UHGV virus genome: UHGV-0211472 | Length of the DNA: 64,000 bases | Direction: 5' to 3' (one strand) | DNA from: a virus | In this document: in pieces, positions 1,333 through 63,659 of the stretch | Position numbering within the stretch: position 1 is the first letter of the stretch | Layout of the letters: each line of letters begins with the position of its first letter | Notes under the pieces: model-generated | What the model was told of the DNA's origin: nothing | What the model saw: the letters and a program-made list of their open reading frames with translations, nothing else | Databases searched by the model: none | Translations under genes and position numbers: made by a program

Positions 1333-2367
1333 ATGGCGTATGGAATATGGACAACGCCAGTCGGACCGGGACCAGCTTCTCCGGCTGAGCTTTTTATTGA
1401 TAGTGATTCTACTTTCCCTCAATTCAAGAACAGGGTTAGTGGTAATTACAACTTTAATGGGGGTAGTAGAGATTTCCCTATTTCTGGATGGGATGGCTCA
1501 GGCCAAATCGTTGTAGTCCCCACCGGCTCTTTGTGTTGGCAATGGGAAGTCCCTCCTAATCTTGTCCCTGATGTGTATGTTGTAAACAATATCAGTATTG
1601 TAAATAACTCAACTTTCAGGGTTAGTATAAACATGAATCCCGGAAGTAATCCACTGTTTGACGTGGCTTTCAATGTATACCAAATATGGCCTAGAGCCAA
1701 TAGAAACTATGGTATAACCTTTTCAAACACAGCTGATTACTTCTCTATATCAGATGCTGGAGTTGTTGGTCAATGTATTTGGGCTTGGGAAGGAAACATT
1801 AATGGCTCTATGCAAATACCAGCAATCAGTGGTTTTGATATGTCTAGAGCTTCAGTGTTTGCTAACTGGTCTGGAGGACAAGGTTTACTCTATGATGCTG
1901 GGAGTCGTAATATCAGGGTTTACCAAAACAGAACCTATGATAACGGAAACAACAACCAAACAGGAACAATTAATAATGTGAGAGTTGCAGTGTTCTGTAA
2001 CGGGGCTGGTGTTCCTACTCACAATGGTGGATTAAACATATATTCACCTAATGGTTCTCAGTGTGTATTTTCTACTTACAGAACACCTTTTATGGTTGAT
2101 CGTTTTATGGCTATGAGTGGAGGGAATACTGGACTTACATATCCTATGATACCTCTGACGAACGGGGCAGGTTCTATTAGGGGTCAGGCGGGGAGTTGGT
2201 ATTTCCAACATGCTAGATCTCATACGATGAACGGCTCTTCTTTTGGTACAGGGTATGGTCGATATATGTTCCAGTGGGATAGAAACTACGATATGGGTGG
2301 TGGTGGGGCTATCTCCCTTCAGATTCCAGTCCTAGATGCTAGGAAGATTTTTAGAAGCATACAATAA
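1333..2367 (+). CDS. putative tail/structural protein (344 aa)
   Basis: start ATG 1 nt after the stop of the upstream gene (TAATATGG); Gly/Asn-rich, structural-module context. Confidence 0.5.
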   Translation: MAYGIWTTPVGPGPASPAELFIDSDSTFPQFKNRVSGNYNFNGGSRDFPISGWDGSGQIVVVPTGSLCWQWEVPPNLVPDVYVVNNISIVNNSTFRVSINMNPGSNPLFDVAFNVYQIWPRANRNYGITFSNTADYFSISDAGVVGQCIWAWEGNINGSMQIPAISGFDMSRASVFANWSGGQGLLYDAGSRNIRVYQNRTYDNGNNNQTGTINNVRVAVFCNGAGVPTHNGGLNIYSPNGSQCVFSTYRTPFMVDRFMAMSGGNTGLTYPMIPLTNGAGSIRGQAGSWYFQHARSHTMNGSSFGTGYGRYMFQWDRNYDMGGGGAISLQIPVLDARKIFRSIQ

Positions 2368-2376
2368 GGAGAACTT

Positions 2377-3159
2377 ATGGCAATTAGAATGGGTATAGAA
2401 GAATTAGACCCGATGGTTCAACAGGCTTCAAAGAAGTATGGTATACCAGCTGCTTTGATTCATGCTGTAATTCAAAGGGAGTCTAGTGGTCGTCCTAAGG
2501 TGGCTTCCGGAACTGGTCCTGTTGGTTTGATGCAGATCAGTAAAGGGTTAGCTAAAGATTACGGTTATAAACTAGAAGATAGGCTTGACCCAGCTAAGAA
2601 TATCGACATGGGTGCTCGCTATATCAGAGATAACCTTAAAGCTTTTAATGGTGATGTTAAGAAAGCAATGGTTGGTTATTCAGAAGGTATTGGTGGAGCT
2701 AAGCAGATGTTCGCTGGTAAAAGAGGGTTTACTCCTCAGGCTCTCGACTCTATGAATAATAAGCACTTCCTTCCTTTCTACGGTGATGCAGCTTCTCAGA
2801 TTGCTAACCCTATTGGAGCTTTACAAGCTATCCAACCAGTCAACCAGTTTAATCCTGACTTACTAGACAGAGAGAAAGCTGCACAAGCTCCAACTCAGGC
2901 GGAGATTGCTGCTTCTAAGACAGGAGCTTTAGGAGGTAATCCGGTAGAGTTTTACTCTGATGAAGTGCAGGAAGGGGAAGATCAGAAGCCTCAACAGAAC
3001 TTTGGTAATGCAGTATTAGGAGTAGCTGCTATGCTTGCTGGTAAACCTCCTACTTCTCAAACAGTTCAGAGGGCAAGTGCACCACATGCAGCAGGTTCTC
3101 AGTACAGTCCACAAACACAAGCAGTGCTTAGACGTTTGGCTAGCATTGGTGTAAAGTAA
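2377..3159 (+). CDS. lytic transglycosylase (SLT-domain) protein, probably virion-associated peptidoglycan hydrolase
   Basis: N-terminal motif ...IHAVIQRESSGRPKVASGTGPVGLMQI matches the SLT catalytic Glu-Ser...GLMQ signature; RBS AAGGAG; located between structural genes. Confidence 0.7.
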   Translation: MAIRMGIEELDPMVQQASKKYGIPAALIHAVIQRESSGRPKVASGTGPVGLMQISKGLAKDYGYKLEDRLDPAKNIDMGARYIRDNLKAFNGDVKKAMVGYSEGIGGAKQMFAGKRGFTPQALDSMNNKHFLPFYGDAASQIANPIGALQAIQPVNQFNPDLLDREKAAQAPTQAEIAASKTGALGGNPVEFYSDEVQEGEDQKPQQNFGNAVLGVAAMLAGKPPTSQTVQRASAPHAAGSQYSPQTQAVLRRLASIGVK

Positions 3160-3178
3160 TAATCTTTAAGGAGGACTT

Positions 3179-4231
3179 ATGTCTTTATTTGGAAAATCAG
3201 CTTCTAGCAAAACCACAGTGGCCCCTTCCTCTCAGGTTGATGCCCTGCTGAAGCAGATTGTTGCTAATGCTCAGAAGATGCAGAACAACGATCAGGGATT
3301 CATCTCCCAACAGCTGGCTGGGTTTAATAACAATCAACAAGGTGCTCTGAACAACTTATCAGCTTCTACAACTCAGAAGCAACTGGCTGACATGTACACA
3401 CCTCGTACACAGCAAGGGCTGGACCAACTTAACTCTCTTGCTCAACAGTATCAGAATATTGTCAATGGTGGTGGAGTGACAGCCGAGGGGGTTAATAACT
3501 TTAGTAAAGGGTTAAATAATTCTGCTCTTGCTCAAGCAACTAGTAAAGCAGCTTCTAATGTATCTCTCGGAAATGGTTCTGACTCAGGTTCTCTCCGTAG
3601 AGCTGCTGCTCAGGGTGCTGCTCTGAACGGTGCTAATACAAACTTAGCTCGTACTATCAGTGGTAAGAATATGGGAATCAGTGCCCTGCAACAAGACCAG
3701 AACTTCCAGAGAGGTTTGCTTGGTGCTCAGTCTGGTCTAGCTGGACAGAATCTCAATCTTGGTGCTCAAGGTGTTCAGGCAACTCAACAAGCTATTCAGA
3801 ATCAACTTATGGCTGGCAATCTACAACAGCAACAGGCTCAAGCACAAGCTGATATCAATTGGCAGAACGCTATTGGTTCTCAGCAGTACGGATGGAATCA
3901 GCTTAACAACCAACTTAATGTATTAAATAGTGTAAGCCCAATGGCTGGATATACAATTAAGAATGCCGCTCCGGGCGTTAACGTAGGACAACAGCTCCTA
4001 GGTGCTGGTATCACTGGTTTAGGTATTGCGGGTCGTATGGGTGCTTTCTCTCCTAACCAACAGACTCAGAATGCTTGGAGTTCATATAACAACTCGGGTG
4101 GGCAATCTGGAATGGCTGGTCCTATGATTGGAGGTTCTAATCTTTCTCAACAGAGGGGTCAGTCTAACTGGTTATCCACGGCAGGGAGTAATATCTTAGG
4201 TGGGGTCTTGGGGGCATTTGGAGCAAACTAA
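3179..4231 (+). CDS. Gln/Asn/Gly-rich structural protein (paralog A)
   Basis: RBS AAGGAGG; begins MSLFGK...; shares the GFNNNQ..ALNNL segment and overall Q/N/G-rich composition with the next ORF. Confidence 0.55.
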   Translation: MSLFGKSASSKTTVAPSSQVDALLKQIVANAQKMQNNDQGFISQQLAGFNNNQQGALNNLSASTTQKQLADMYTPRTQQGLDQLNSLAQQYQNIVNGGGVTAEGVNNFSKGLNNSALAQATSKAASNVSLGNGSDSGSLRRAAAQGAALNGANTNLARTISGKNMGISALQQDQNFQRGLLGAQSGLAGQNLNLGAQGVQATQQAIQNQLMAGNLQQQQAQAQADINWQNAIGSQQYGWNQLNNQLNVLNSVSPMAGYTIKNAAPGVNVGQQLLGAGITGLGIAGRMGAFSPNQQTQNAWSSYNNSGGQSGMAGPMIGGSNLSQQRGQSNWLSTAGSNILGGVLGAFGAN

Positions 4232-4243
4232 AGGAGAATATCT

Positions 4244-5212
4244 ATGTCACTTTTTGGTGGAGGCGGAAGTAAAACTACTTCCCAAATGATTCGCCCTGAA
4301 TACATTCAACAGTATATTGACCAGCTTAATAAGCAGATTGGTAATACTAGTTCAGGGGATTATGTTTATCGAGATAATGTAGGGTTTAATAACAATCAGA
4401 CAGAGGCACTTAATAACCTAGCACAATCTGGCGCTTTAGGCACTCTCTCACAGCAATATATGGATGCAGCAGGTCAAGGCTTGGGTTATCTAGATAATGC
4501 CTATAAAGGCTATCAGAGCCTCTCTGGACAAGGTGGGATTACTGGAGAACAAATTGGTGCTCTCGCTGGTCAACTGTATGATGATGATGCTGTGCAAGCA
4601 GCTATTACAGCTAATAACGAGCAGGTTCAACAGAACTTGGCACGTAATGCTCTTCCTCAATTAGCTCAACAGTATGCTGGTCAGCAAGGCTCAGGTGCTC
4701 GTATGGCTAAATCTTTTGCCCAAGGTGATGCTCTGAATCAGATGCAAGGGCAAGCAACAGATATTACCAACAGTGCCTATAACTCTGCTATCAACCAAGC
4801 TGAAAGCATTCTCTCTGGTAATAGACAGAATCAGGCAGCTGCTCTCTCTGGTCTTTCTACTATTGGTTCTAACCTTTCTAACCTAGGTCAGCAGGGTGCT
4901 AATTTGTCTCAACAGCAAATAATGAATCAATGGAATGCAGGGTTGCAGCAACAACAGCAACAACAGAATGAATATGATAATGCCTACCAGAACGCTCAGA
5001 ACGCAGCTAATTGGGGATGGCAAGATATCAACAACCAACTCGGTGCAGCAGGTGTACTTAACGGTGCTCTCGGACAAACTACAACTACTAAAACATCTGG
5101 TGGTAGTGGTGGCTTCTTAGGTGGGGCCATGAGCGGTGCAGCAGCAGGCTCTGCGTTTGGGCCTTGGGGTGCATTAGCTGGGGGTGTAATCGGTGGGTTG
5201 GCTAGTACTTAA
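4244..5212 (+). CDS. Gln/Asn/Gly-rich structural protein (paralog B)
   Basis: RBS AAGGAGA; begins MSLFGGGG...; paralogous to 3179..4231. Confidence 0.55.
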   Translation: MSLFGGGGSKTTSQMIRPEYIQQYIDQLNKQIGNTSSGDYVYRDNVGFNNNQTEALNNLAQSGALGTLSQQYMDAAGQGLGYLDNAYKGYQSLSGQGGITGEQIGALAGQLYDDDAVQAAITANNEQVQQNLARNALPQLAQQYAGQQGSGARMAKSFAQGDALNQMQGQATDITNSAYNSAINQAESILSGNRQNQAAALSGLSTIGSNLSNLGQQGANLSQQQIMNQWNAGLQQQQQQQNEYDNAYQNAQNAANWGWQDINNQLGAAGVLNGALGQTTTTKTSGGSGGFLGGAMSGAAAGSAFGPWGALAGGVIGGLAST

Positions 5213-57860: not shown

Positions 57861-57900
57861 TCGACAAATTAATTATTAATAGTATAGGAGCTAATATAAC

Positions 57901-58962
57901 ATGGCTAGTCCAACTTTATTTGTATCGTATGACCAGAATGGTAAAAAACTTTCTTTTGCTAACTGGATTTCTGTTCTGTCCCCTCAGGATACCCCGTTCG
58001 TATCTATGACCGGTAAAGAGTCTATCAACCAGACTATCTTTAGCTGGCAGACCGATGCACTGGCAAGCGTTGACGGTAATAACGCACACGTCGAAGGCTC
58101 TCGTGCTGAAGACGGCGAAATGAAACCGACTGTTATCAAATCTAACGTTACTCAGATTCTGCGTAAGGTTGTTCGTGTTTCTGATACTGCTAACACCACC
58201 GCTAACTACGGTCGTGGTCGTGAACTGATGTATCAGCTGGAGAAGAAAGGTAAAGAGATCAAGCGTGACCTCGAGAAAATCCTTCTGTCCGGTCAGGCTC
58301 GTACCGACGTTCTGGCTGACCAGTACCTGACTAACTCTGCAACTGATCCTGCTGTTGTTGGTCTGAATGACACCCATACAGCTCGTAAGACTGGTGCATT
58401 CCAGTTCCTGTGTGCTCACGGTGGTCTGGCTGGTGGTGTTGTTGACAAGACCAAGAATGGTCCTGCTGACCCGGATACTGGTGCAATCACTGTTAAAGTT
58501 GCACAGAATGCTTCTAACCCGACCACTAACATTGGTTTCGACGAAGCTGATATCTTTGATATGACTCTGCAACTGTATACCGCTGGTTCTGAAGCAGATA
58601 TCATCATGATTAACCCGGCTCATGCTAAGATCTTCGCTGGTCTGCAAGAAAATACTCAGGGTTCACGTAAGCGTATCTTTGAGAACACCAAGCAGTTCAT
58701 CTACGAAGTTAACAGCATCACTGACCCGCTGGGCCAGAGCTACAAAATCATCGTTAACCGTTGGATGCCTACCGATGCAGTTTACTTCTTCCGTAGCGCT
58801 GACTGGACTCAGATGGTTCTGCGTGCTCCGAAACGTACTGAACTGGCTAAAGATGGTTCTTATGAGAAATGGATGATTGAAATGGAAGTTGGTCTGCGTC
58901 ACCGCAACCCGTATGCTTCCGGCGTTCTGTTCACTGCTGCGGGAAAGGTAGCGGCGGCGTAA
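57901..58962 (+). CDS. major capsid protein
   Basis: synteny (after scaffold), RBS AGGAG, strongly biased codon usage (CGT, CTG, GGT) suggesting high expression, followed by Ig-like extension and terminator. Confidence 0.7.
   Translation: MASPTLFVSYDQNGKKLSFANWISVLSPQDTPFVSMTGKESINQTIFSWQTDALASVDGNNAHVEGSRAEDGEMKPTVIKSNVTQILRKVVRVSDTANTTANYGRGRELMYQLEKKGKEIKRDLEKILLSGQARTDVLADQYLTNSATDPAVVGLNDTHTARKTGAFQFLCAHGGLAGGVVDKTKNGPADPDTGAITVKVAQNASNPTTNIGFDEADIFDMTLQLYTAGSEADIIMINPAHAKIFAGLQENTQGSRKRIFENTKQFIYEVNSITDPLGQSYKIIVNRWMPTDAVYFFRSADWTQMVLRAPKRTELAKDGSYEKWMIEMEVGLRHRNPYASGVLFTAAGKVAAA
58941..58947 (+). other. predicted -1 programmed ribosomal frameshift slippery heptamer G_GGA_AAG
   Basis: X XXY YYZ heptamer in capsid frame 5 codons before stop; the -1 frame is open from 58881 and continues GKGSGGVTVDSVTVSPSS... 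into the Ig-like ORF. Confidence 0.55.
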
Positions 58963-59045
58963 CAGTAGATTCCGTAACTGTTAGTCCTTCGTCGGTTGCA
59001 AGCCTTCCGACGGGGGCTACTCAGCAGTTTACAGCTACAGCAGAA

Positions 59046-60065
59046 ATGAGTGACGGCTCCACAAGCACAACTGGATTTAATTGGTCCGTTGAAGGCGGTG
59101 GGGCTATTTCTGTTTCTGGGCTATACACTGCACCGAGTGCGTCGCAAGAAACCCCAGCAATTATTACGGCAACGAAGTCATCCAAGAAAGGGACGGCTAC
59201 TGTTAATTCTATCTACGAACCAGCGACTATTGTATCAAAAGGTCCTATTACTGGTAAGATTGGTGGCAGCACTACAGCATTCACCACAATGTTTACAGCA
59301 ACCAACTCAGCATTCTCTGATTATGAGTTTGAAATCACTCCTCCGTCAGCAGGTTCTTTTAACCTGTCGGGTGTATTTGGTTTAGATGACAATGCATCTG
59401 GAACAGTGACTGTAAAAGCAACGCATAAAACTCAAACCTCAGTTACTGCAACAGGGACAATCAGTGGTGTAATTCCTAAAGCTACTATCACAGGTAAGTC
59501 TCTTACCGGTAAGGTTGGTGGTGATGTGATTCCTTTTACTGACATGTTTACTAGTAACAAACCAGCATCGGAATTTACTTACGCACTGACTCCTGATGGT
59601 GAAGTTGGTTCAATCAACACTACTACTGGTGCACTGACTTTAGCACTGGCTCCTACAGATGAACTTATGAGTGTTAAAGCAACCCATAAAACACAAACTT
59701 CTGTAACAGCTACTGCTACAATTACAGCAACACCGAAGTTGACAGGTCTTGTCCTTTCTTCTGTGACTAACACCACGGTTACTGGAAGCCCTGCGGTTCC
59801 GGCTGAATCTGATACAATTACTATCACTGATTCAGGTGTTGCAGGTGTTGCTCGTGTAGATGGGGTTCCTCAAGGAGCTTTAACTGGAGCTTTGGCCTAT
59901 GATGTAGAAGGTACAGATTCTTCATTGATGACAGTGGATTTAACCAGCAATGTGTTAACTATCACCCTGTCAGCACCGATTACCAGTGAAGATACAAAAA
60001 TTACCATCCGAACTAATCCGGGTTCTGATGTTTTCCGTACTTATATTGTTAAATCTGGTGCATAA
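59046..60065 (+). CDS. Ig-like (BIG2-type) domain protein, probably expressed as C-terminal extension of capsid protein by frameshift
   Basis: repeated VKATHKTQTSVTAT... Ig-like units; the first domain (VTVSPSSVASLPTGATQQFTATAEMSDGST) begins upstream of the annotated ATG in the -1 frame of the capsid gene. Confidence 0.6.
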   Translation: MSDGSTSTTGFNWSVEGGGAISVSGLYTAPSASQETPAIITATKSSKKGTATVNSIYEPATIVSKGPITGKIGGSTTAFTTMFTATNSAFSDYEFEITPPSAGSFNLSGVFGLDDNASGTVTVKATHKTQTSVTATGTISGVIPKATITGKSLTGKVGGDVIPFTDMFTSNKPASEFTYALTPDGEVGSINTTTGALTLALAPTDELMSVKATHKTQTSVTATATITATPKLTGLVLSSVTNTTVTGSPAVPAESDTITITDSGVAGVARVDGVPQGALTGALAYDVEGTDSSLMTVDLTSNVLTITLSAPITSEDTKITIRTNPGSDVFRTYIVKSGA

Positions 60066-60068
60066 GAA

Positions 60069-60098
60069 TAAAGCCGCCTTCGGGTGGCTTTTCTTGTT
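60069..60098 (+). terminator. rho-independent terminator after capsid/Ig module
   Basis: AAGCCGCC-TTCG-GGTGGCTT hairpin followed by TTCTTGTTTT. Confidence 0.55.
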
Positions 60099-60164
60099 TT
60101 AAGACCTATACAAGTCAGTGTGTAATGTATATTCTTTGTCTACATATAACAAGGAGGACAACCT

Positions 60165-60926: not shown

Positions 60927-63659
60927 ATGATTAGTTACAACAATTCAGCACCTAAAGCGGTAAATAATGTAGGGCAATTCGGTGCTACAGAAGGGTCCAT
61001 TGGTGCATATAAATCAGCAGCTGAGTATGCGTCTGATGCTAAATACTGGGCACTTCTATCCCAAACTAAATACTCTTCAGTAGAGGATATTCTGGCTGAA
61101 GTAGAACGCCTGTATGCTCAAGGTTATCTACTGGAAGAAGATATTAAACAGCTTAAGAGTGACTTTGAGTCACAAGAGCAAGTGCTCTTAGGCTTGATTC
61201 AATCCACAGGAACTGCAATTGACAACACTAATGCAGCAACTGAACTTTCAAAAGAGGCAACTCAAAATGTTCTAGCACAACTTGACATTATCTCTAATAT
61301 GACAGTTCAAACAACGCTACTCCCTCCCGGAAGTTTAGCAACTGGATCTTATGACAACTTAACTGGAGAGTTTTCTTTTGGTATTCCAGAAGGTAAACCG
61401 GGCCGTGATGGGACAGATGGTACGATTTCTGATATCGGCAGTGTTCCTATTGGTACCCCTGTTACTGATGACTTCGGTTTCTATGTAGATCAGGATGATG
61501 GTGGTTTATACCGAGCCAATATGTCTGATATTGCCAACCTAGTGCCTTCTATCCGATCTATCTCTATCAACGGCGGTGCAGAGCAGACGGGTACTGTATC
61601 TTTTAACTCTGTATCTAGTTTTAACACTCGTACCGGAGATGTTGTATCACAAACTGGTGATTATGAAGTAAGTCAAATCACAGGGGCGGCTGCTAGTGGT
61701 GATAATTCAGATATTACATCCCTTTCTGGCCTTACTACAGCAATATCTGTTTCACAGGGTGGTACAGGGGCTACATCTGCTGAGAATGCTCGAGTAAATC
61801 TTGGACTCGGTTCAGTGTCTGTGGAAAATGTAACCCCTTTAACTAAAGGAGGTACAGGAGCTACTACACCTTCTGGTGCACGTAGTAATCTTGGCTTAGG
61901 TTTAGTTTCAACTGAATCTATCGTGCCAATCACTAAAGGTGGTACAGGGGCTACATCTGCTGAGAATGCTCGATTGGCATTGGTTGCAGCTAAAAGCGGT
62001 GCTAACTCAGATATTACATCAATGACAAATAGCGTCACTTTTACCCAGCCAATATCTATTGCCGATGGGGTAAGTGCTACAAACGCTGTGAACCTCGGTC
62101 AAATTTCCTCAAATCAAGGGGCTTCTTTAATTGGTGTTAAGCAACCCTTTACAAACACAGTAGCTCGGACACAATACGACAAGAATGCGGAGATGATATC
62201 CATTCGTGACTTCCATCAGAGCACTGACCCTGACTGGACGCTTGCGTTTAATCGTGCGTCAACAGTATCTGCACAGCAGGGGAAAATTATATTCGTACCT
62301 GCCGGTGAGTACAAAATATCAGATTCTATCCTTCTCTATGATTCGGAAGATGTTTACAACGAGAAATATTATCAGCCACCAGGGAGCCGATTTGTCGGGG
62401 AGGGCCGCGCATCTATTATTCGCAAGACAGCGGTAGGGACTCAGGACATTAACGCTGTTTTCTACAACAAAGGTAAGCGCGGTAATGTTGTCCGTGGACT
62501 GCGCATTCTGGATGAGACAACGGATAGTTACGGGTATTACACACCCAATACAGCTGTATACCAGGAATTTAGCGATCTGTTTATCCTGGCACAAAAATGG
62601 GGAATGTATTTTGGAGGTAATACCTTTGTTGGTGTTTCCCTCCGCGAAATCGTTGTCCAAGGTTCAAACGCTACGGGTATATATGGTGGTATTCATATCC
62701 ATGGCGGGACGAGCTACGTAGTATCTCAATGTAATGTGTTTAAAGCGAACTACTGTTCCTTTGAGTTGACTGGCTCATACTGCGAAGTGGGACCATTAGC
62801 ATCTGATGATTGCACTGGGACTCCGTATATTTTTAACGCAGGCTCGTACAGCGTTTCATCTTTAGGCTGTGAGCAGCCTTCGCGCCAGAACAGTGGAACA
62901 ATTATTAAGGGAACCGGGGCTAACTTGCAGATAGACAATATACATCTGTATGACCAAACGCAGATTGCCGGTAGCTACATGTTTGACCTATCCGGCTATG
63001 CGAAAGTAAGTATTAAGCAACTAATCACCAGCTCAACCACTACTTTCAATGGTGCGATGGCCCGTTTAAACAACGGTGCTAAGTTAGAAATCGTGTACAG
63101 CAATAAGGTTGAAACGTCGTGGCCTCAAAGGAATTCTTATGACACAACAACAACAACTTTCGCTACGTTAGGAAGTCTTGGTGGTGTGGCAACCATCCCG
63201 ACATTCGGAACTACTATGTGCCGAGATATAGCTCTACCAAATCCGAACCAGGAGAATGGTCCCTACTATCGTATTGTTGGTGGTCAATATGGAACTCGTG
63301 GTTGTATTGGAACTATATTCACTCTACGTAGTGGTACTGGTATGACTCCTATCGCAGGTGCTTATAATCTTAACACAGTAAGCAGTAACACTGCTACGAA
63401 CGCAAAATTAGTTAAAGCTGCTCATTGCGACACTGAAGCCCTCAAAGACTATGATAAATGGTTCACTGGTACGTACGAAGGGACGTCTTATCTATTTATC
63501 CGTATGCCTATTGAAGGCGGGGATCGCAACCTCGGGACATTCTTCTCTGGTGTTGTTTTTGGACAAGATCGAAATATGTTCAAAACCTTGTTAGGGAGTG
63601 AGATCTCCGGACTAACTGAATATTCGTCGGGTAGTATTCTTACCGCGCAGGCAACTTAA
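60927..63659 (+). CDS. tail fiber / tailspike-like protein
   Basis: 910 aa; three copies of KGGTGATSAENAR-(V/L) repeat typical of fiber shafts; Gly/Thr/Ser-rich C-terminal region consistent with beta-helical fold. Confidence 0.6.
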   Translation: MISYNNSAPKAVNNVGQFGATEGSIGAYKSAAEYASDAKYWALLSQTKYSSVEDILAEVERLYAQGYLLEEDIKQLKSDFESQEQVLLGLIQSTGTAIDNTNAATELSKEATQNVLAQLDIISNMTVQTTLLPPGSLATGSYDNLTGEFSFGIPEGKPGRDGTDGTISDIGSVPIGTPVTDDFGFYVDQDDGGLYRANMSDIANLVPSIRSISINGGAEQTGTVSFNSVSSFNTRTGDVVSQTGDYEVSQITGAAASGDNSDITSLSGLTTAISVSQGGTGATSAENARVNLGLGSVSVENVTPLTKGGTGATTPSGARSNLGLGLVSTESIVPITKGGTGATSAENARLALVAAKSGANSDITSMTNSVTFTQPISIADGVSATNAVNLGQISSNQGASLIGVKQPFTNTVARTQYDKNAEMISIRDFHQSTDPDWTLAFNRASTVSAQQGKIIFVPAGEYKISDSILLYDSEDVYNEKYYQPPGSRFVGEGRASIIRKTAVGTQDINAVFYNKGKRGNVVRGLRILDETTDSYGYYTPNTAVYQEFSDLFILAQKWGMYFGGNTFVGVSLREIVVQGSNATGIYGGIHIHGGTSYVVSQCNVFKANYCSFELTGSYCEVGPLASDDCTGTPYIFNAGSYSVSSLGCEQPSRQNSGTIIKGTGANLQIDNIHLYDQTQIAGSYMFDLSGYAKVSIKQLITSSTTTFNGAMARLNNGAKLEIVYSNKVETSWPQRNSYDTTTTTFATLGSLGGVATIPTFGTTMCRDIALPNPNQENGPYYRIVGGQYGTRGCIGTIFTLRSGTGMTPIAGAYNLNTVSSNTATNAKLVKAAHCDTEALKDYDKWFTGTYEGTSYLFIRMPIEGGDRNLGTFFSGVVFGQDRNMFKTLLGSEISGLTEYSSGSILTAQAT

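Follow-up and report, generated by a model that had tools for sequence, protein, structure and literature searches.

A frameshift that adds an Ig-like extension to the major capsid protein is already published and annotated for the Kuravirus group of coliphages. Joined CDSs are given in the GenBank records of phages Paul ("Frameshift at GGGAAAG") and YF01, and the frameshift site was described for YF01 and the Kuravirus group (PMC9965538). For SU10 the site was described together with capsid forms of 38.5 and 55.4 kDa detected by mass spectrometry (PMC4281155), and a minor capsid form was detected by proteomics in Privateer virions (PMC7881722). Detection of a long form in phiEco32 is cited second-hand in a passage of PMC7881722 and in the Paul record. 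Cryo-EM of SU10 gave no density or gel band for the extended form (PMC9509320; PMC9965538); the 2014 proteomics and the 2022 cryo-EM of this phage conflict over it. The SU10 GenBank sequence carries a 1-nt insertion that leaves the -1 frame open for just 13 codons.

As is predicted for the locus described here, gene 10 of T7 and T3 (10A/10B) uses a -1 shift near the end of the capsid gene, so that a longer capsid protein is made as a minor form and assembles together with the short one; a terminator follows the gene. In T7 the slip sequence is different, the extension is much shorter (~50 aa) and the capsid proteins are not known to be closely related to those here. The analogy with 10A/10B, which had been proposed from the sequence alone, is also drawn in the literature (PMC7881722, PMC9965538). 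Phage lambda G/GT has the identical heptamer G_GGA_AAG, a low slip rate (~3.5% in the figure quoted in PMC9965538) and, like here, no canonical strong stimulator. In lambda, however, the gene is that of a tail chaperone and the product is an assembly factor, whereas here the gene is that of the capsid and the product a predicted virion decoration.

We consider it very probable that the -1 programmed ribosomal frameshift known from coliphages of the phiEco32/SU10 type (Kuravirus group) also operates in the DNA analysed here, a stretch of 64,000 nt referred to as the window. This analysis provides the frameshift signal with its register and conservation, and the coding status and fold of the extension; the long form in relatives comes from the literature.

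Capsid gene and slippery heptamer

The following features were located at the locus:
57886..57890, + strand: Shine-Dalgarno sequence AGGAG of the major capsid gene, read from the sequence; anti-SD duplex of -6.5 kcal/mol
57901..58962, + strand: major capsid protein, zero-frame product (353 aa, 38.7 kDa)
58941..58947, + strand: slippery heptamer G_GGA_AAG (Gly348, Lys349), in register and conserved in relatives
58947..60065, + strand: -1 frame extension (372 aa and stop)
58960..58962, + strand: zero-frame stop TAA, with a second stop TAG two codons on
60070..60101, + strand: intrinsic terminator of the capsid/extension transcription unit, a 9-bp GC-rich stem followed by a T-run (-18.2 kcal/mol)

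The capsid protein matched Pfam SU10_MCP (E = 3.3e-77), the SU10 major head protein (PDB 7Z45; 98% identity, E = 2e-234) and PHROG 1328, major head protein. Its gene is flanked by scaffold and adaptor genes (Pfam SU10_adaptor was matched), in synteny with Paul and phiEco32. The locus shares its capsid family, at 98-99% identity, with the Kuravirus group (phiEco32 gp11/gp12, SU10 gp9/gp10, Paul and YF01). As in that group, GGGAAAG lies 3-5 codons ahead of the capsid stop and is followed by a Gly-rich linker, a first Big_2 domain and a terminator after the extension. The locus differs only in its extension, both in length and in sequence: it is 372 aa long here, whereas that of phiEco32 has 178 aa and those of YF01 and Paul have 543-545 aa.

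At the junction the capsid frame reads GCG GGA AAG GTA GCG GCG GCG TAA, which gives the register G_GGA_AAG. As the sequence-only reading had stated, GGGAAAG occupies 58941..58947 in slip register, five codons before the stop. AAG is the fifth codon, and four sense codons lie between it and the stop. The heptamer was identical in 18/18 Kuravirus-group junctions, while the flanking bases on both sides and the linker codons differed, and Proteus phage J3S also has it at 57% capsid identity. Conservation of the site thus exceeds protein-coding need, the heptamer being invariant beside variable codons. GGGAAAG by itself is not enriched in the window (8 copies observed vs 7.0 expected). Of the copies in the window, only that at 58941..58947 lies in slip register within a long ORF and is followed by a long -1 ORF, and the capsid gene has no other X_XXY_YYZ heptamer in register. 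Viral and metagenome contigs were also scanned with the exact 16-nt junction pattern, which gave 35 and >120 loci respectively; nearly all of them were chance matches, and one further real junction, phiEco32-like, was found (L061).

The same protein product would arise if RNA polymerase slipped at GGGAAAG and left the mRNA one base short or long. Transcriptional slippage requires a long homopolymer, as a rule at least 7 A or T, and the longest runs at the site are G3 and A3. Only tRNA re-pairing depends on the X_XXY_YYZ register, and this register is strictly conserved. The same heptamer is cited in PMC9965538 as an established site of ribosomal slippage in lambda G-T. We give polymerase slippage next to no probability. 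Stop read-through was also considered as the source of the extension and was ruled out by the frame and by the second stop, TAG, two codons past the TAA.

Probable translation of the -1 frame

Following TGA 58878..58880, the -1 frame runs without a stop from 58881 to TAA 60063..60065, and its reading ...GKGSGGVTVDSVTVSPSSVASLPTGATQQFTATAEMSDGSTS... agrees exactly with that quoted earlier. The full fusion CDS, join(57901..58947, 58947..60065), encodes 721 aa with a mass of 75.7 kDa. Its product outweighs the capsid protein (38.7 kDa computed) by 37.0 kDa, in agreement with the ~37 kDa expected beforehand. Over the extension there are 0 stops in the -1 frame, vs 23 and 34 in the other two frames. 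The dN/dS of the extension was 0.21 (vs EP335), with per-domain values of 0.14-0.31 in all four domains, and by this sequence measure it is under purifying selection. Codon usage of the extension is weakly optimised (GC3 0.28 vs 0.46; CTG 5/19 Leu vs 19/23), as expected for a low-abundance product. The extension matched PHROG 13745, 'Ig domain containing protein' (E = 7.6e-66), and 48 homologues were found. EP335 gave the closest full-length match with 76% identity, and a metagenomic protein (P0003) was 93% identical to the part after Met 59046. No terminator was found between the capsid stop and the extension; the sole strong one follows the extension, where the Paul and SU10 records also place it. 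For detection of the fusion, trypsin would give a junction peptide of 80 residues, and Glu-C or Asp-N a predicted peptide from 58947..59045, for example SVTVSPSSVASLPTGATQQFTATAE.

The first ATG, GTG or TTG in the -1 frame is the following codon:
59046..59048, + strand: ATG used by gene callers for a separate 'Ig domain protein'; no Shine-Dalgarno sequence; within Big_2

If this were a real start, the Ig-like ORF would be a separate gene and would encode a free 34-kDa protein, either a non-covalent capsid decoration or a protein with another role. The computed mass of this ORF product is 34.2 kDa, below the ~36 kDa named in the sequence-only reading. The locus is annotated in this way in many GenBank records and in all metagenomic gene calls found, PHROG 13745 begins at the Met corresponding to 59046, and the authors of the SU10 cryo-EM study took gp10 as a possible minor capsid protein (PMC9509320). 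However, no Shine-Dalgarno sequence was found at Met 59046 (0 kcal/mol, vs -6.5 to -11.4 for five neighbouring genes). The Ig-like domain would moreover be incomplete if started there. The Big_2 domain does begin upstream of this ATG, at 58965, as had been proposed, although the Met lies 27 codons inside it and not 25. Nor is the Met conserved. It is missing in the phiEco32, ECBP2 and TH42 lineages, and in other lineages its codon is AAA (Lys) or TTG/CTG (Leu). The first start candidate in each relative is GTG at +30, GTG at +51/54, ATG at +105, or none before +144; these candidates always fall within the first Ig-like domain and none is conserved, whereas in every relative the open -1 frame extends upstream past the heptamer. 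The 55.4-kDa gp9+10 form found in SU10 by mass spectrometry (PMC4281155) also speaks against a separate gene. From the sequence, ATG 59046 is probably not a real start, and we regard a separate gene as very unlikely.

The -1 frameshift proposed in the sequence-only reading is supported by an invariant heptamer in register, the lack of a conserved start and a coding extension. According to this model, most ribosomes would translate the capsid gene to TAA 58960 and release the 353-aa HK97-fold capsid protein. In a minority, tRNA-Gly on GGA and tRNA-Lys on AAG (58942..58947) would slip one base back to GGG_AAA, and these ribosomes would go on with GGU in the -1 frame, past the capsid stop. The tail added in this way would consist of a Gly/Ser linker and four tandem Ig-like beta-sandwich domains, 372 aa in all. 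The 721-aa protein would keep the capsid body whole and is therefore expected to be built into the prolate head beside the short form, as a minor subunit, presumably with the Ig array displayed on the outside. The SU10 head has 715 capsid copies (PMC9509320), and at an assumed slip rate of ~3.5% about 25 extended copies per head would be estimated.

RNA structures around the slip site

Three local structures were predicted near the heptamer:
58884..58923, + strand: stable local RNA hairpin immediately 5' of the slip site (-15.0 kcal/mol)
58927..58965, + strand: stem-loop whose loop contains the heptamer (-16.0 kcal/mol); its stability ranks third among local folds
58982..59019, + strand: conserved RNA hairpin of 13 bp with one bulge (-18.3 kcal/mol, z = -3.42)

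The downstream RNA was folded, as had been proposed earlier as a check. No canonical stimulator (stem-loop or pseudoknot at 5-9 nt spacing) was found, the 38 nt after the heptamer folding no more stably than shuffled sequences (z = 0.17); the stable hairpin 58982..59019 starts 34 nt 3' of the heptamer. A downstream stimulatory structure 5-9 nt away is common in -1 frameshifting and is not obligatory. No other local fold of the 2.2-kb unit is as stable as the hairpin 58982..59019, which a lower stem extends to 58976..59029. In 16 sequences 96.6% of its cells were paired, and slid controls were far lower. One of its pairs covaries (GC:7, UA:5, AU:4), and a synonymous Ser codon position co-varies with the opposite, non-synonymous position.

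The upstream hairpin ranked 4 in stability of 1095 40-nt windows in the 2.2-kb unit. The heptamer stem-loop is supported by an RNAalifold helix at columns 1-6/20-25 and appears disrupted in phage LAMP, as judged by eye from the alignment; a counterpart has been described in SU10 (PMC4281155). An outer RNAalifold helix (columns 31-34/101-104) was rejected, as by eye it appears unpaired in TH42, TH43 and E20-1.

We suggest only tentatively, and think it rather doubtful, that the structures at the slip site may set or tune the frameshift rate or protect the mRNA of the extension, which would seldom be translated, with the Ig array as a fast-evolving adhesion module. The element in such a reading would be 58884..58923 and the heptamer stem-loop and, above all, 58982..59019, which would act at a non-canonical distance of 34 nt.

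Ig-like domains and related capsids

The extension was divided into four domains:
58965..59195, + strand: Ig-like domain 1 (Big_2), extension residues 7-83; Pfam Big_2, AF2 strands E7-E86
59217..59480, + strand: Ig-like domain 2, residues ~91-178; AF2 strands 94-176, pLDDT above 90
59481..59738, + strand: Ig-like domain 3, residues ~179-264; AF2, tandem duplicate of domain 2
59739..60062, + strand: C-terminal beta-sandwich domain 4, residues ~265-372; AF2 strands 267-370, no Pfam family

The extension is confidently predicted to fold as four tandem beta-sandwich domains, the AF2 model being all-beta with a pLDDT of 91.9. With the whole model as query, the top Foldseek matches were tandem Ig/cadherin arrays (titin, protocadherin and DSCAM) and LigA arrays (E = 1e-8 to 1e-12). 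A Pfam scan of the whole extension gave no match; Big_2 (PF02368) was marginal and passed only with an isolated 93-aa fragment of domain 1 as query (25.1 bits vs a cutoff of 22.8, E = 1.7e-5). The assignment to Big_2 is also supported by precomputed PF02368 matches on homologues and by the Foldseek match to LigA. Domains 2 and 3 share 43% identity (E = 8e-12). When the extension sequence was searched against the PDB, the sole match was to a lectin and attributable to chance (E = 0.35).

The heptamer and the -1 ORF might instead be an evolutionary remnant, with an extension that is decaying and no longer made in useful amounts. This would fit the closed -1 frame of the sequenced SU10, a phage that is viable nevertheless, and the variation in sequence and length among the extensions of close relatives, whose best identity is 76% on capsid bodies of 98-99%. 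A decaying extension is hard to reconcile with 372 stop-free codons, the low dN/dS of each domain, the confident four-domain fold and a heptamer unchanged across all junctions. Distant relatives, in addition, retain the Ig-tailed capsid form through other genetic routes. We therefore assign hardly any probability to a remnant.

These distant relatives are Salmonella phage 7-11, Aeromonas phage BUCT695 and Cronobacter phage GAP52, which have short and long, Ig-tailed capsid genes. Like the phage analysed here, they have a capsid of this family (~56% identity), and like the predicted fusion, their long form has a C-terminal Big_2 tail. Their two forms, however, are encoded separately: a terminator follows the short gene, and the second gene carries the tail in frame, with no recoding. 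The two-isoform outcome itself is thus conserved. Among the Kuravirus-group relatives, the length of the extension changes in steps of one Ig domain, from 2 to 6 domains on near-identical capsids. The downstream hairpin, these one-domain steps and the capsid duplication in distant relatives may be points not reported before.

Big_2 and I-set domains occur on phage structural proteins, often through frameshifting (Fraser et al. 2006, as cited in PMC9965538 and PMC7885116). Both papers also cite weak carbohydrate binding as a proposed role of virion Ig-like domains, with the mucus-adherence model of T4 Hoc. Unlike Hoc, a separate capsid-binding protein, the array predicted here would be covalently fused to a capsid subunit. 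Most likely it would serve as a weak adhesin for surface carbohydrates and not as an essential structural part. Mucin binding by the Kuravirus ES17 was assigned by its authors to the tail fibre and not to the Ig domain (PMC7885116), and the Ig extension was set aside as its source.

Most database records and every metagenomic call found split this locus into a capsid protein and a truncated 'Ig domain protein'; the proper annotation is a joined CDS for a 721-aa minor capsid protein. The capsid frameshift brings no new principle and is another case of recoding that attaches Ig-like domains to phage capsids at low dose. As the extension changes by whole domains on near-identical capsid bodies, it is a candidate determinant of where therapeutic-candidate coliphages stick.

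The capsid gene and its Ig-like extension

The region belongs to a phiEco32/SU10-like coliphage of the Kuravirus group, subfamily Gordonclarkvirinae. The ORF at 57901..58962 matches Pfam SU10_MCP (E = 3.3e-77), and its product shares 98% identity from end to end with the SU10 major head protein (PDB 7Z45). The gene after the capsid and Ig-like ORFs matches Pfam SU10_adaptor, and the gene order (portal, small ORF, scaffold, capsid, Ig-like ORF, adaptor, fibre) is that of phiEco32 and Paul. No record identical to the window was found in the phage collection; its last 24 kb are ~93% identical to several Kuraviruses over ~69% of that length. The tail fibre gene (60927..63659, 910 aa) carries central repeats of G-G-T-G-A-T-S/T-x-x-x-A-R-x-N-L-G-L.

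The capsid gene ends in GCG GGA AAG GTA GCG GCG GCG TAA. As the sequence-only reading had claimed, GGGAAAG lies at 58941..58947 in the G_GGA_AAG register, followed by four sense codons and the stop, and no stop interrupts the -1 frame between 58881 and the TAA at 60063..60065; its translation is the one quoted there. By itself the heptamer is unremarkable, at 8 copies in the window vs 7.0 expected. None of the other seven copies lies in register in a long ORF backed by a long -1 ORF, and 58941..58947 is the only in-register X_XXY_YYZ motif within the capsid gene. Following the established model for this heptamer, tRNA-Gly and tRNA-Lys would re-pair from GGA_AAG to GGG_AAA. The post-slip product joins capsid residues 1-349 to 372 new residues (721 aa, calculated 75.7 kDa), the normal form having a calculated mass of 38.7 kDa. 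Read-through of the stop cannot produce the extension, as the extension is in a different frame and another stop lies two codons beyond the first.

The -1 frame has no stop in the 372 extension codons; the two alternative frames have 23 and 34. Compared with phage EP335, dN/dS of the extension is 0.21 overall and 0.14-0.31 across each of the four domains. In PHROG the extension falls in family 13745, 'Ig domain containing protein' (E = 7.6e-66). A Pfam scan of the initial 93 residues gave Big_2 at residues 7-83 with 25.1 bits (gathering score 22.8); this match runs from 58965, bearing out the prediction of an Ig-like domain that starts upstream of Met 59046, the ATG taken by gene callers as the start of a separate ORF. 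Because the whole extension has no Pfam match, the Big_2 assignment is marginal by sequence alone. The AlphaFold2 model of the extension, made from an alignment of 43 sequences, was all-beta and confident (mean pLDDT 91.9), with four strand clusters.

Strand clusters in the AlphaFold2 model of the extension
First: residues 7-86
Second: residues 94-176
Third: residues 181-262
Fourth: residues 267-370

Foldseek searches of the PDB with this model returned tandem Ig/cadherin arrays (protocadherins, DSCAM, titin), S-layer proteins and the Leptospira LigA Big_2 array. SU10 fibre chains 7z4b_DW and 7z47_G were also matched, via shared beta-rich domains only. Domains 2 and 3 are 43% identical (E = 8e-12) and therefore represent a tandem duplication. 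GC3 is 0.46 in the capsid body vs 0.28 in the extension, and CTG supplies 19/23 vs 5/19 of the Leu codons, a codon usage that fits an extension made in small amounts on a capsid protein made in very large ones.

Frameshift or separate gene

Evidence of four kinds points to a frameshift and away from a separate gene: heptamer conservation, start codons, the ribosome binding site and the transcription unit. The heptamer is identical in all 18 Kuravirus-group junctions compared (genera Kuravirus, Nieuwekanaalvirus and Suseptimavirus), even though these junctions differ at the sixth base upstream of it, in the linker codons that directly follow and in where the zero-frame stop falls. It is also present in Proteus phage J3S (57% capsid identity), adjoining the stop (GCG GGA AAG TAA). 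The start codon that an independent Ig-like protein would use is not conserved across the junctions. The first candidate is ATG at +105 nt in the window lineage, GTG at +30 in phiEco32, LAMP and MN03, and GTG at +51 in TH42, TH43 and E20-1, and there is none before +144 in ECBP2 and KBNP1711. Elsewhere, AAA (Lys) or a Leu codon stands where the window has ATG; the phiEco32 GTG corresponds to GTA in the window; and all candidate positions fall within the first Ig-like domain. Upstream of Met 59046, Shine-Dalgarno complementarity is wholly lacking, in contrast to values of -6.5 to -11.4 kcal/mol for the portal, scaffold, capsid, adaptor and fibre genes. No terminator was found from the capsid stop to the extension, and a strong one (60070..60091) lies directly 3' of it. 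The sequence observation at the capsid end is confirmed, and its interpretation as a programmed -1 frameshift is supported.

This frameshift is already known and is ordinary for the Kuravirus group, and the value of the finding lies in correct annotation. In GenBank MN045231 (phage Paul) the CDS is annotated as joined and bears the remark 'Frameshift at GGGAAAG; Frameshift in PhiEco32 major capsid protein product as well (PMID: 18294652)', and OQ025076 (YF01) has a joined capsid CDS. The YF01 paper describes two capsid forms in YF01 and other group phages via GGGAAAG slippage, the extended form being ~500-550 aa long in most members but 892-894 aa in YF01 and Paul, and compares the slippage with the lambda G-T (~3.5%) and T3/T7 gene 10 (~10%) frameshifts (PMC9965538). 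Privateer has the same heptamer, and its minor capsid form was detected in virions (PMC7881722). The SU10 genome paper reports the same slip site, a stem-loop enclosing it and, from mass spectrometry, capsid protein in a 38.5- and a 55.4-kDa form (PMC4281155).

In the SU10 cryo-EM study the head showed no density attributable to an Ig-like protein (PMC9509320), which the YF01 authors explained by a premature stop in the SU10 -1 frame (PMC9965538). We confirmed this stop: relative to phiEco32, SU10 (L186, KM044272, 1391..1440) has a 1-nt insertion 25-30 nt past the heptamer, so that the -1 frame ends after 13 codons and the Ig-like ORF falls in the capsid's own frame. The insertion is at odds with the 55.4-kDa gp9+10 form seen in 2014, and may reflect either a sequencing mistake or a stock that has changed. 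The apparent loss in SU10 suggests that the extension is dispensable in the laboratory.

RNA structure around the slip site

The sequence-only reading had proposed folding the downstream RNA in search of a stimulatory structure. At the canonical spacing none was found, the 38 nt past the heptamer folding much like shuffled sequence (z = 0.17). We scanned the 2.2-kb capsid/extension unit in 1095 overlapping 40-nt windows (mean -6.0, sd 3.1 kcal/mol).

Most stable 40-nt folds, in order, and the RNA hairpin
58982..59021, -18.8 kcal/mol
the terminator, -18.2 kcal/mol
58926..58965, heptamer in the loop, -16.0 kcal/mol
58884..58923, -15.0 kcal/mol
58982..59019 (extended 58976..59029), RNA hairpin, -18.3 kcal/mol, z = -3.4

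Three of the four most stable folds fall within ~60 nt of the heptamer, making this an unusually structured stretch. The fold enclosing it is the one reported for SU10; in phage LAMP it is disrupted, as judged by eye.

The hairpin sits 34 nt past the heptamer, with the zero-frame stop 19 nt before it; its counterparts in phiEco32 (z = -2.7) and TH42 (z = -3.3) are stable too. Across 16 sequences 96.6% of cells are paired, and only 33-54% when partners are slid 1-3 columns as a control. One pair occurs in three Watson-Crick forms (G-C in 7, U-A in 5, A-U in 4), joining the third base of a Ser codon (TCG, TCA, TCT; synonymous) to the middle base of the opposite, variable codon (CCG, CTG, CAG, GAG; non-synonymous); one other pair is broken in six sequences. 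The sequences come from close relatives and the changes probably go back to no more than two or three independent events, so the covariation is rated as suggestive and not as proof. The putative hairpin could tune the slip from a distance, mask internal start codons, stabilise an mRNA segment translated by few ribosomes, or serve as an RNase III-type processing site.

Variation among relatives and the capsid pair

Capsid bodies are 93-99% identical across the group. The best extension identity among annotated phages is 76% (EP335), and one metagenomic protein is 93% identical over the part after the Met. Extension lengths, compared between window 58947..60062 and relatives' loci L001, L002, L015-L019, L024, L025 and L181-L185, step by roughly one Ig domain from 178 to 545 aa.

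Extension lengths
178-180 aa: phiEco32, NJ01, ECBP2, LAMP, MN03
264-271 aa: Ptacy1479, TH42
351 aa: SGF2
370-372 aa: TH43, E20-1, EP335, window
457-459 aa: SR02, Bas86
543-545 aa: YF01, Paul

Against EP335, dS is higher in the extension (0.83) than in the capsid body (0.32). As judged from these sequences, the length steps and raised dS suggest recombination or domain shuffling. MZ417522.1, 'Mycolicibacterium phage J1' (24,953 bp), contains a capsid junction of Kuravirus type with 79% identity to the window; the record is apparently mislabelled or contaminated.

If the slip rate were a few percent, as in lambda, extrapolation to the 715 capsid subunits of the SU10 head (PMC9509320) would give ~25 subunits per head with the Ig array. 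From the general literature on phage Ig-like domains, the array would be displayed on the outer surface and may act in weak carbohydrate adhesion. For ES17, the sole Kuravirus studied for mucin binding, the authors credit the tail fibre (PMC7885116).

Among distant relatives (56-66% capsid identity), four uncultivated contigs (L009-L012) have no canonical heptamer. Their capsid genes end in CTG AAG GTA AAG GCG/CCC TAA, around 4900..4925, with an Ig-like -1 ORF of 88-169 aa; a domain scan of L009 and L012 gave Big_2 in the former and Ig_3/I-set in the latter. A GC-rich hairpin begins ~5 nt past the capsid end in L009-L011. Another relative's locus, L014, has A_AAA_AAG at 4897..4903 with a -1 ORF of only 40 aa. 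These five junctions may be candidate non-canonical slip sites. No -1 ORF was found at the capsid end of locus L013 or of GAP52. Salmonella phage 7-11, BUCT695 and GAP52 have two tandem capsid genes: a short one, then a terminator-like hairpin, then a second gene with an in-frame Big_2-like tail.

Tandem capsid genes
7-11 (L021): 1482..4258
BUCT695 (L022): 2501..4781
GAP52 (L023): 2492..4629

This is a gene-duplication route to the pair of short and Ig-tailed capsid proteins. The accessible papers, which do not include the original phiEco32 paper, held no description of the downstream hairpin, the domain-step variation or the gene-duplication alternatives. Taken across the clade, the arrangements described above make the short and Ig-tailed capsid pair a conserved outcome, reached by differing genetic routes.
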